Sequence record: PZ379176.1
Direction: 5' to 3' (one strand)
Length of the DNA: 64,000 bases
DNA from: a phage
Positions 22,375 to 24,436 of the stretch are shown here, in pieces. Position 1 is the first letter of the stretch; each line of letters begins with the position of its first letter. The position numbers and the translations under genes were made by a program. The notes under the pieces were generated by a model. That model was not told the origin of the DNA. It made no database searches and saw only the letters and a program-made list of their open reading frames with translations.

Positions 22375-22453
22375 TCAATGGGTGCCTCTGATAAAGGGGC
22401 ACAATTTAAAGGTTAATTAGATGAAAGGGTTTACCCTTCAGGTGGATTAGAAA

Positions 22454-24436
22454 ATTTGTGGCATCGTATTAGCTGGCGGTAATCTGTCAAGCACTGATTT
22501 AGACGTATTTAACCAACTCTTTTATGCTGGAGTATTCCGAGGACAACATTCCTCCGGTATCTTTGGTCAGCGTAAAAGTACTAAGGAAGTCTTCACTTAT
22601 AAAGAAGCTCTTCCTTCTTTCGCATTCATCCTACAAGATGAGTACAAGAAGCACACCACTGGTGAAACAGCTTACACTGTAGCACCTTCATGGATTGTTG
22701 GTCACAGTCGTCATGCAACGAAAGGTGCAGTTAACGCCAAGAACGCCCATCCTTTCCAACATGGTAACATCACTCTGGTTCATAATGGAACCTTGATGGA
22801 CCAAGACCTGTTACCTGACAGTAAAAACTTCGAGGTAGATAGTGAGAACATCTGCCACTCTATTAACACTATTGGTGCAGCAGAGACTATTCAAAAGCTG
22901 GATGGTGCTTTCACCTTAATCTGGCATGATGCTTCTGATAACCGCCTTCATATCATTCGTAACGAAGAGCGTCCTTTCCATCTCGCACGTTGTAACAGAG
23001 ATTGGTTTGGCGCTTCTGAAGAAGATATGCTGATGTGGATTCTGAAGCGTTCGAAGTCTCACAAGAACCGTATTGATGAGCATTTTGAGTGTAAAGTTGG
23101 TACAGAGTATATCTTTGACATGTCTAATAACAGCATGACACTGGTTGAAGAGGTCGCCCACGAGCTTCCGGTTTTTACGGTAGTCAATCGTTGGGGCAAT
23201 TACTACTCGAACAATTACAGCCAAAGCAACTATCAAAGTTCCTCAAAAAGCAGTACAAGCAATCCTTACGACACGAAGCCGGGTGTGACAGCGGCAGACG
23301 TTCGTCGAAGAAACGCAGTGGTAAGTCAAAACAAAATCGCAAGCGATCGAAACATTGATATTCGCCGCGATATGACTGTGGAAATCACTCCGCATGAGTT
23401 TGTTCCTTATGCAACTGCCGGTGCTGTTCCTTCTCGTGGTAAGATGATTGGTTATATCTACGATGAGAAATCTCAAGAGTATATCGAAGGTGATGTTCAT
23501 AACGTAGACATTAAGGCTTATCAGGATGCCCTGAAAGACCCTAAAATTGTTTACCGTGGGACAGTATCCTGCATCTCCGAAGTCAATGCTATGGTCCGTT
23601 TAGTGATCACAGCAGGTCGTTTTGTTGACCCATCTCTGGAGAAAAAGGAGCCTGAGTCAACTACTGCTGACTTCGATGATGATATCCCTTTTGATATGAA
23701 TGATAGTTTCGTCAACAAGAATGGTGTTACTATCACTCGTAAATTCTGGGAAGCGCACTCTCATGGTGATTGTGGTGGTTGTGATAAGCACATTGATTGG
23801 AAGGATGCACCTAAAGCAGTCTTCGCATATCAGTGCTATTGGCATCCTGAATGTCTGGAAGGTTTGACTAAACCTAAAGAGGAAGAAGAGGAGGAAACTC
23901 CTATTGGTGTTTGTGAAATCTGCGGTGAAGTTAAAACAGAGAATGAGTTCGATGATGAACTTAGTCGTCTTCGTGGTGAAGATATCTGTAAAGTCTGCGC
24001 TGTAGAAGTAAAGAAGAAAGTGTCTAATGCTACGATCAAAGATGGTTATGTCTGGATTAAAGCAACAGATACAACAAACGCCCGTCGTCCTGAATTCGCT
24101 TTACGTGTAACTGAAGATATGATCGGTCGTATGACTGTATTACCTTCCTCAGCGAAACAGACAGGCATCACTCTGGAGGATGTTGTTGATGCTTATGTTG
24201 AGAAACGTAGCAACAGTATTTTTGCAATCTCAACTAAGCCAAAAAGGAGGAACCTGCTGAGAAAGCAGGTGTGTTTCCTGAATCACGAACAGCTCTCCGC
24301 AAAACTGTCGTCAGCTTCGACGGAAACCGAAGCACTGACTTCACCAAAGCAATGTGGTCAACCCTCGGATACTGCTCAGAGTGTTTTAAGCAGATTCCGT
24401 GGCGCGATGCTGAAAGTTGTACGCTTGGTTCTATGA
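22454..24436 (+). CDS. class-II (Ntn) glutamine amidotransferase domain protein with Cys-rich C-terminal extension; probable ATT start
   Basis: Frame opens directly after a TAG; second codon is Cys followed by GIVLAGG...FRGQHSSGIF...SRHATKG...HPF...HNG (PurF/GlmS-type pattern); SD AGGTGGA 8 nt upstream of ATT 22454; C-terminus has CGGCDKH...CYWHPEC and CEICGE...CKVC. Confidence 0.6.
   Translation: MCGIVLAGGNLSSTDLDVFNQLFYAGVFRGQHSSGIFGQRKSTKEVFTYKEALPSFAFILQDEYKKHTTGETAYTVAPSWIVGHSRHATKGAVNAKNAHPFQHGNITLVHNGTLMDQDLLPDSKNFEVDSENICHSINTIGAAETIQKLDGAFTLIWHDASDNRLHIIRNEERPFHLARCNRDWFGASEEDMLMWILKRSKSHKNRIDEHFECKVGTEYIFDMSNNSMTLVEEVAHELPVFTVVNRWGNYYSNNYSQSNYQSSSKSSTSNPYDTKPGVTAADVRRRNAVVSQNKIASDRNIDIRRDMTVEITPHEFVPYATAGAVPSRGKMIGYIYDEKSQEYIEGDVHNVDIKAYQDALKDPKIVYRGTVSCISEVNAMVRLVITAGRFVDPSLEKKEPESTTADFDDDIPFDMNDSFVNKNGVTITRKFWEAHSHGDCGGCDKHIDWKDAPKAVFAYQCYWHPECLEGLTKPKEEEEEETPIGVCEICGEVKTENEFDDELSRLRGEDICKVCAVEVKKKVSNATIKDGYVWIKATDTTNARRPEFALRVTEDMIGRMTVLPSSAKQTGITLEDVVDAYVEKRSNSIFAISTKPKRRNLLRKQVCFLNHEQLSAKLSSASTETEALTSPKQCGQPSDTAQSVLSRFRGAMLKVVRLVL

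Follow-up and report, generated by a model that had tools for sequence, protein, structure and literature searches.

An invariant leader and a predicted AUU start codon at the glutamine amidotransferase gene of Kuravirus phages

Results

The amidotransferase frame and its product

We analysed the start of a glutamine amidotransferase gene in a 64,000-nucleotide stretch of phage DNA (sequence record PZ379176.1), which as a whole is called the window below. A megablast query with positions 21800–23400 of the window matched 97 phage records, all of them Kuravirus podophages of E. coli; the best match was Shigella phage ShigP1 (100%), and phiEco32, SU10 and ES17 matched at 97–99.9%. Judged by this comparison, the window comes from a Kuravirus, a phiEco32/SU10-like coliphage. 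At this locus an early-gene cluster encodes a COOH-NH2 ligase, an Amidoligase_2 enzyme, a class-II glutamine amidotransferase and an ATP-grasp enzyme. The amidoligase stop lies 79 nt upstream of an ATT codon at position 22454, with which the amidotransferase gene appears to begin, and the leader between them carries a nine-codon upstream open reading frame (uORF).

A first-pass annotation of this DNA had read the junction as ATG, nine-codon uORF, TAG, AAA, ATT and TGT, which is exact to the base. The frame runs ATG (22421–22423), AAA GGG TTT ACC CTT CAG GTG GAT, TAG (22448–22450), AAA, ATT (22454–22456), TGT (22457–22459), GGC ATC GTA and translates as MKGFTLQVD-stop-KICGIVLAGG. The same annotation had noted the lack of an AUG start, and indeed no ATG, GTG or TTG occurs for 113 codons after the TAG; the first such codons in frame are TTG 22793 and ATG 22796, 113–114 codons downstream. 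A 31-mer of the junction occurs once in the window (0 expected) and does not arise by chance. Nor is the junction a sequencing error, as 97 phage records match a 60-nt query covering the leader with 100% identity. The Shine–Dalgarno (SD) sequence had been described as well spaced. AGGTGGA (22440–22446) is followed by 7 nt (TTAGAAA) and then by ATT, in agreement with that description; the best pairing with the 3′ end of 16S rRNA, however, involves AGGUG (22440–22444) at −7.2 kcal/mol, with 9 nt between it and AUU. Aligned with AGGAGG, which related leaders have at this place, the AGGTGG of the window has a central mismatch, and the SD is moderate, not ideal.

The product is a predicted class-II (N-terminal nucleophile, Ntn) glutamine amidotransferase and a homologue of phiEco32 gp83 and SU10 gp85. 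Pfam scored GATase_6 at 55.4 bits (cut-off 27) and GATase_7 at 27.8 bits (cut-off 25), and a family profile matched GlmS, GFAT1, PurF and AsnB in PDB with E values of 4e-7 to 5e-4. Profile position 1 aligned with residue 1 (Cys1) of E. coli PurF (1ecb) and human GFAT1 (7ndl), and VHNG of the phage family was aligned with VVHNG of GlmS. In alignments of 18 family members, C1, G2, R28, N110-G111 and D128 were invariant. The earlier statement that Cys has to be residue 1 of the mature enzyme agrees with this invariant C1-G2 pair and with the position of the Cys codon, directly after the start in all relatives. The class-II GATase domain covers about residues 1–250. The long C-terminal remainder (23200–24436, residues ~250–660) gave no Pfam match and is rich in Cys, with CxxC-type motifs such as CGGCDKH...CYWHPEC and CEICGE...CKVCA.

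Comparative evidence for a start at ATT

The 112 codons from the ATT to the first canonical start are judged to be translated, because dN/dS is 0.065–0.075 while pS is 0.69–0.77, near saturation (pN 0.13–0.16; comparison with SU7, KBNP1711 and ECBP2). A canonical start stands directly before the Cys codon, at the position of the ATT, in Salmonella phage 7-11 and Cronobacter phage GAP52. We also inspected 14 non-Kuravirus relatives from IMG/VR, which were picked by protein similarity with the leader disregarded; the codon before Cys was ATG in 12 of the 14, GTG in one and TTG in one. The ATT itself has been retained in 97 genomes, although a single T>G change would turn it into ATG.

The ATT start is not new, as it already stands in the phiEco32 GenBank record EU330206 (2008), in its RefSeq copy and in both SU10 records, and the BASEL records Bas87/89/90/91/93 place the start of the coding sequence (CDS) at the same ATT. 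We found no experimental support for the annotated start in the literature looked through, which did not include the phiEco32 genome and transcription papers. A truncated CDS is annotated in ShigP1, Paul, EcM-vB1, SU7, KBNP1711 and others, and in ~85% of the listed related phage records the product is cut by 114 residues and thereby lacks the catalytic Cys. The SU10 protein was detected in polyethylene glycol-concentrated lysate with nine peptides and 23.7% coverage (PMC4281155). For the 676-aa model that begins at ATT, the predicted N-terminal tryptic peptide is CGIVLAGGNLSSTDLDVFNQLFYAGVFR. Overall, initiation at ATT, which the first-pass annotation had suggested would give M-C-G-I directly, is strongly supported by comparative evidence, namely the canonical starts of relatives, purifying selection, the Cys1 alignment and existing annotation.

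An invariant leader around the start

The ATT lies in a 58-nt block (Table 1), together with the uORF and its ribosome-binding site, the second SD, TAG-AAA and the Cys-Gly codons. When Kuravirus, Suseptimavirus and Nieuwekanaalvirus are aligned over 1.6 kb, with a mean column identity of ~0.55, this block is the only fully invariant stretch, and all nine third codon positions of the uORF are invariant across the genera. The first synonymous site past the block (GGC/GGT, 22462) is already variable between genera. As 58 bases are unchanged beside saturated synonymous sites, the constraint seems to act on the nucleotide sequence and not only on a peptide, and as the block has the same boundaries in all genera, selection is indicated rather than a recent conversion patch. 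Among exact matches between window and SU7 genome-wide, the leader ranks ~16th and is not the longest conserved block. No other copy of the leader was found in the window or in 5,426 E. coli genomes, and GTDB genomes gave one match only, in a Kuravirus contig binned into a metagenome-assembled genome (MAG). The leader and the amidotransferase start of this contig (CALKAR010000070.1, in a 'Peptococcaceae' MAG; L140 in our numbering of loci) are exactly those of Kuravirus, and it is most likely a mis-binned coliphage contig.

The motif T[TA]AA(A)GGT[TA], followed by 4–9 nt and ATG, precedes at least seven real ORFs on the same strand (3814, 18170, 18864, 24685, 24911, 34764 and 42222). The mini-cistron formed by the uORF looks translatable, because its ATG has this usual ribosome-binding motif of the phage. 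Besides the small hairpin inside the uORF, an alternative pairing of GGTTTACC with GGTGGATT (−5.4 kcal/mol) would cover the SD. Upstream of the block, the stem of the hairpin that follows the amidoligase stop shows compensatory changes between genera (GTGCCTCT/AGGGGCAC, GCGCTCT/AGGGCGC and GTGCCTC/GGGGCAC). We rejected this hairpin as an intrinsic terminator, as its T-run is short or absent and the scan made no terminator call; within the early operon it may stabilise the RNA, mark a processing site or terminate transcription weakly. Two promoter candidates were also rejected. For the phage sigma factor (gp36) promoter tAATGTAtA, the leader sequence TTTAAAGGTTAAT matches poorly, the published phiEco32/SU10 lists place no such promoter here and the gene belongs to the early cluster. 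An antisense sigma-70-like promoter (22490>22463, minus strand; TTGACA-16-TACGAT, 10/12), which would direct transcription through the leader from the opposite strand, has a −35 element that is not conserved in SU7 and is probably a chance match.

Table 1. Features at the amidoligase–amidotransferase junction of the window
Feature	Position	Strand	Basis
Amidoligase_2 gene, phiEco32 gp84 homologue	21271..22374	+	Pfam PF12224, E 4.5e-8; SU10 and phiEco32 annotation
Stable hairpin after amidoligase stop	22382..22402	+	fold: 8-bp stem, GATAA loop, −13.9 kcal/mol
Invariant 58-nt leader block	22404..22461	+	exact window–SU7 match; three-genus alignment; 97 records
uORF ribosome-binding site	22405..22414	+	TTTAAAGGTT, AAGG 8 nt before ATG 22421
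Nine-codon uORF MKGFTLQVD-stop, in frame with amidotransferase	22421..22450	+	TAG 3 nt before ATT
Small uORF hairpin AAGGG-TTTA-CCCTT	22425..22438	+	fold, −4.9 kcal/mol
Amidotransferase SD AGGTGGA, within uORF	22440..22446	+	16S 3′-end duplex −7.2 kcal/mol; AGGAGG in other ATT-type leaders
Predicted ATT start codon of amidotransferase	22454..22456	+	homologous to ATG/GTG/TTG of relatives; CDS start in EU330206, NC_010324, KM044272, NC_027395
TGT, predicted nucleophile Cys1	22457..22459	+	invariant C1-G2; alignment to PurF, GFAT1 Cys1
Amidotransferase ORF, 660 aa in window	22454..24436	+	Pfam GATase_6 and GATase_7
Conserved C-terminal 70 aa of amidotransferase, other frame	24271..24483	+	comparison with relatives

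Recurrence of ATT and ATC before the catalytic cysteine

We scanned metagenome contigs with the pattern GGATTAGAAAATTTGTGG and found the identical TAG-AAA-ATT-TGT junction before other members of the same amidotransferase family. Besides Kuravirus contigs, nine metagenome contigs from ~six lineages carried (G)CAGGAGGATTAGAAA-ATT-TGTGG, or a variant SD, before family amidotransferases; for one of these loci, L056, GATase_6 was confirmed by Pfam. The core GG(A/T/C)GGATTAGAAA-ATT-TGTGG heads amidotransferases that are 23–42% identical to each other and to the window protein, and in a neighbour-joining tree the ATT-type members are interleaved with ATG-type ones. L100 from IMG/VR is a further lineage with the core. 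Aeromonas phage BUCT695, which belongs to another family, has an amidotransferase that is 54% identical and groups with those of 7-11 and GAP52. Its leader is of the Kuravirus type with two changes, one in the hairpin loop (TTTA>TTAA) and one in the SD (GGTGGA>GGCGGA), while uORF (MKGLTLQAD), TAG and ATT are kept.

Related ATT-type leaders have AGGAGG followed by 8 nt, and we surveyed IMG/VR with AGGAGG-N8-XXX-TGTGGNMT for four start codons. ATT gave 46 hits with seven class-II amidotransferase lineages (L100, L160/182, L187, L155/170/188, L156/165, L163 and L172), ATC gave 23 hits with three (L206, L209 and L212), and ATG gave 36 hits with about 6–7. The control codon ATA gave 22 hits, all short chance ORFs, and no class-II amidotransferase lineage. 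These counts are not frequencies, since weak starts are over-represented when a perfect SD is required; in the 14 non-Kuravirus members chosen without regard to the leader, ATT was found in none. In each surveyed ATT lineage an in-frame stop lies 1–28 codons upstream with no canonical start between, and the spacers vary. Of nine ATT and ATC ORFs submitted to Pfam, seven scored above the GATase_6 threshold, whereas L156 and L163 gave weak matches. L172, which runs off its contig after 57 aa, was grouped with the L155 family by N-terminal similarity only. Predicted AUU and AUC starts immediately ahead of the catalytic Cys clearly recur among phage Ntn amidotransferases. We searched the literature for amidotransferases with an ATT start codon and found nothing, and the invariance of the 58-nt leader, the shared core near HNH genes and the recurrence of ATT and ATC appear to be unreported in the searchable literature.

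The survey also brought up a separate class-II GATase-like family of ~210–230 aa, with ATT-TGT behind AGGAGG (L155/L170/L188, L156/L165, L163 and L172). The ORFs of L156 and L163 adjoin QueC-like genes, and the amidotransferases of this family probably belong to phage gene clusters for 7-deazaguanine modification of DNA. An unrelated repeated element containing gataggcgcgtcaatgacgGGATTAGAAAATTTGTGGcacat shares an 18-mer by coincidence; it occurs in 11 metagenome contigs from few samples (L050, L052, L059, L060, L064, L065, L069, L070, L084, L089 and L092) and contains no amidotransferase start.

A putative course of initiation

We propose, with a probability of about 80%, that the gene encodes an AUU-initiated phage amidotransferase with a fixed initiation region, assisted by termination and re-initiation at the mini-cistron, followed by removal of Met. 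Initiator tRNA would read AUU 22454 as formylmethionine, which deformylase and methionine aminopeptidase would strip, leaving the catalytic Cys as residue 1. The weak AUU would be helped by the SD AGGUGG, by the A-rich 8-nt spacer AUUAGAAA and by the sequence AUU-UGU-GG. In this phage group the mini-cistron, with its UAG 3 nt before the AUU, would add to initiation: ribosomes on it would open the small hairpin, terminate beside the AUU and could re-initiate there. An ORF ending at the TAG is present in Gordonclarkvirinae, in BUCT695 (without an SD) and in L073, L056, L093 and L077; in the last three it is a full upstream gene, whose stop codon is this TAG, again 3 nt ahead of ATT. The first-pass annotation had judged expression to be non-canonical and possibly regulated. 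This is reasonable, as the whole leader is invariant; a regulatory purpose such as low or IF3-sensitive expression (IF3, initiation factor 3) would be conceivable.

Several observations weigh against this proposal. AUU yields 1–2% of AUG in one E. coli reporter (bioRxiv 10.1101/063800) and 6–8-fold less than AUG in another reporter study (PMC3592434), and because AUU is so poor and yet nine SU10 peptides were detected, some compensation is suggested. The tabulated SU10 mass of 63.8 kDa corresponds to a 562-aa model from Met115 rather than to the 76.2-kDa full protein, so that the N-terminus lies outside the model (PMC4281155). The same core occurs without an ORF ending at the TAG in L081, L080, L061/71, L072 and L100, which means that coupling is not general, and the uORF of BUCT695 has no SD in front of it. 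The invariant third positions of the uORF point to a constraint at the RNA or DNA level, for which simple coupling does not account and a peptide does not either. Finally, we rejected the SD-masking alternative hairpin as a switch, as it is broken by both BUCT695 substitutions; the first hairpin is kept in that phage.

Homing endonucleases at the junction

The conservation of the core might instead reflect a homing endonuclease. The core would then be conserved as the target of an HNH enzyme or as a co-conversion tract, ATT being perhaps a cleavage-resistant but still translatable allele; the Kuravirus uORF would be the scar of a lost endonuclease ORF or would replace it in function, with ATT still the start codon. 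Pfam identified HNH_3 genes immediately upstream of the core in L072, L093, L077 and L080, the upstream ORF of L056 is endonuclease-like without a Pfam hit, and BUCT695 has a decayed HNH remnant. Thus an endonuclease gene is associated with the junction in five of nine ATT-type lineages compared with 0 of 13 ATG-type loci (Fisher exact p ~0.005, calculated by hand), in a comparison that comprises few lineages found by an exact-match pattern. ATT-type lineages are scattered in the protein tree and 23–42% identical, yet have an exact 18–23-mer in common. L056 and L072 share one amidotransferase behind different endonuclease genes, with the breakpoint just 5′ of SD/GCAGGAGG, and BUCT695 combines a 7-11-type protein with a Kuravirus-type leader.

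In contrast, the 58 nt are invariant in the window and the other 96 Gordonclarkvirinae records, which have no endonuclease gene at the junction. Identical block boundaries in three genera, with 22462 already different, fit selection better than conversion tracts. Moreover, the core is identical in endonuclease-positive and endonuclease-free loci, with no visible difference in immunity, and among ATT-type amidotransferases with other spacers only one of nine (L187) has a candidate adjacent endonuclease. We regard homing as the main alternative explanation for the conserved core, but a doubtful one. A related idea, which we put forward tentatively, is that AUU or AUC before Cys is a selected, recurrent trait and that the core GG(A/T/C)GGAUUAGAAA-AUU-UGUGG is an ultra-conserved, possibly horizontally exchanged and endonuclease-linked initiation cassette, serving either as a translational control device or as an endonuclease-resistant allele. 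If so, it could, for example, make the dose of a glutamine-consuming enzyme depend on IF3 or on coupling.

Two loci carry further traces of endonucleases. In BUCT695 (L007, 1305–1500), the stretch from the ligase gene to the leader contains decayed HNH endonuclease fragments (MDKVLKKITHQGDCWLWTGCINSDGYPKE-stop) and a helix-turn-helix segment; the fragments resemble the intact endonucleases upstream of ATT-type starts in L093, L077 and L080. In L187, a 114-aa ORF (4283–4624) includes a LAGLIDADG-like motif (WCAGLFCGEGS) and stops 1 nt short of the amidotransferase ATT; it may encode a homing endonuclease of a different type at this junction.

Other explanations of the leader and the start

The leader could also be an operator for a trans-acting regulator, or a ligand-sensing RNA, with AUU, SD and uORF inside a structured element. 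Candidates are a site for a translational repressor and stalling that depends on the Gln codon CAG 22439 and covers the SD; the uORF has only this one Gln codon, and it overlaps the SD of an enzyme that uses glutamine. The invariance of the 58 nt, including the nine third positions, beside saturated synonymous sites would be accounted for, as would two mutually exclusive hairpins of which one covers the SD. However, the fold z-score of the leader is only −1.9, the SD-masking hairpin is broken in BUCT695, and covariation is absent, as there is almost no variation. An Rfam 15 scan of 22300–22600 at E≤10 returned just three chance sub-threshold hits (13–17 bits against gathering scores of 44–70) and no glutamine or other riboswitch, and no candidate regulator was found. 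We consider an operator unlikely.

Initiation at TTG 22793 or ATG 22796, with the upstream 113 codons untranslated or a decaying remnant, would agree with the truncated CDS in many GenBank records and with the SU10 peptides, which were matched to the 63.8-kDa model. It is very improbable given a dN/dS of 0.07 over 112 upstream codons with saturated synonymous sites, and the product would be without Cys1, Arg28 and Asn110-Gly111 and so without the greater part of its catalytic residues. ATT is not a start that gene callers can choose, and by eye, without an SD scan, we saw no SD-like motif in the 18 nt before ATG 22796 (GTTCATAATGGAACCTTG).

Propeptide-bearing Ntn amidotransferases exist, as B. 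subtilis PurF and GltB illustrate, and the first-pass annotation had offered, as an alternative, a start at the uORF ATG 22421 with readthrough of TAG 22448 and autocatalytic removal of a 12-residue propeptide as in B. subtilis PurF. Although the uORF shares the reading frame and is preceded by a good ribosome-binding site, this is very unlikely, as the same junction occurs in L081, L080, L061/71 and L100 behind a frame that is open for 1–23 codons without a canonical start, the TAG ends a 150–163-codon endonuclease-type gene in L056, L093 and L077, ATG-type relatives all begin Met-Cys without a propeptide, and UAG-A is not known to promote readthrough, while amber suppressors are absent from wild-type E. 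coli. By inspection, we also rejected −1 frameshifting on AAAAUUU and hopping over UAG, as the frames do not join the Cys frame and there is no landing codon.

Frame differences downstream

The last ~64 aa of the 660-aa window ORF are out of frame relative to those of relatives. The A-run at 24241–24245 is A5 in the window and A6 in ShigP1, SU10 and Bas90, which shifts the conserved Cys-rich C-terminal 70 aa into another frame and results in 660 aa with an unrelated tail compared with 676 aa; the annotated CDS length of EcM-vB1 suggests the same A5 state. The A5 run is probably a homopolymer sequencing error. In the A6 version, CCA AAA AAG contains a zero-frame heptamer of the dnaX type (A_AAA_AAG), and GGAGG comes after it. 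At ~25357–25361 the window again differs from ShigP1 and SU10 by 1 nt, in a homopolymer or as an indel, and this difference splits the RimK-like ATP-grasp gene (SU10 gp82) into ORFs 24927–25382 and 25409–26119. Both indels look like assembly errors, because the window and ShigP1 differ by only two substitutions in 6.6 kb.

Discussion

Our analysis shows exceptional constraint on the leader and shows that its start type recurs in phage amidotransferases, sometimes beside homing endonucleases. The large share of truncated records follows from the inability of gene callers to pick ATT, and functional or structural work on the truncated models would be work on a dead enzyme. Confirmed AUU starts are extremely rare, with two in E. 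coli, whereas here the codon is fixed in ~97 phage genomes within an unchanged leader. A coliphage with an E. coli host and a small leader makes a tractable system for selection on weak starts, feeding by a mini-cistron and endonuclease effects on start choice.

The closest relatives of the window gene, phiEco32 gp83 and SU10 gp85, are 98–99% identical at the DNA level and have their GenBank/RefSeq CDS at the very same ATT; their records do not annotate the uORF, the invariance of the leader or the wider recurrence. With GlmS/GFAT, PurF and AsnB the phage family shares the GATase_6/7 domain, the nucleophile Cys1, the Asn-Gly oxyanion pair and the Asp. Whereas bacterial class-II enzymes have ATG-TGY starts or propeptides, the phage family differs in its Cys-rich C-terminal region without Pfam match, and the window enzyme sits in a cluster with amidoligase, COOH-NH2 ligase and ATP-grasp genes. 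Sporadic HNH_3 genes at the amidoligase–amidotransferase junction, beside conserved DNA, recall free-standing endonucleases of the T4 seg/mob type. In contrast, the junction of the window is without an endonuclease gene.

A rare ATT start combined with a wrongly annotated downstream ATG is also known from Enterococcus faecalis ebpA, where the ATT attenuates expression (PMC4447247); ebpA encodes an unrelated protein in an unrelated organism, without a uORF and without the Ntn constraint. infC, which encodes IF3, and pcnB are the confirmed AUU-initiated genes of E. coli (PMC3592434; bioRxiv 10.1101/063800), whereas the AUU start of the window is predicted by sequence comparison. In both, unlike in the window gene, the second codon need not become residue 1 of an Ntn enzyme, and IF3 autoregulation has no obvious counterpart in the phage. 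infC has no sequence similarity to the window, and the upstream cistron here is a nine-codon mini-ORF, or an endonuclease gene in other phages. It nevertheless combines SD and AUU in the same way, as the stop of the upstream thrS lies 3 nt before the AUU, like that of the window uORF (UAG AAA AUU). In reporters of the thrS-infC junction (UAA-GGU-AUU), re-initiation and de novo initiation contribute about equally (PMC3592434). The phage gene would thus be a new member of the small AUU-initiated class, with an infC-like junction of a stop codon, 3 nt and AUU.

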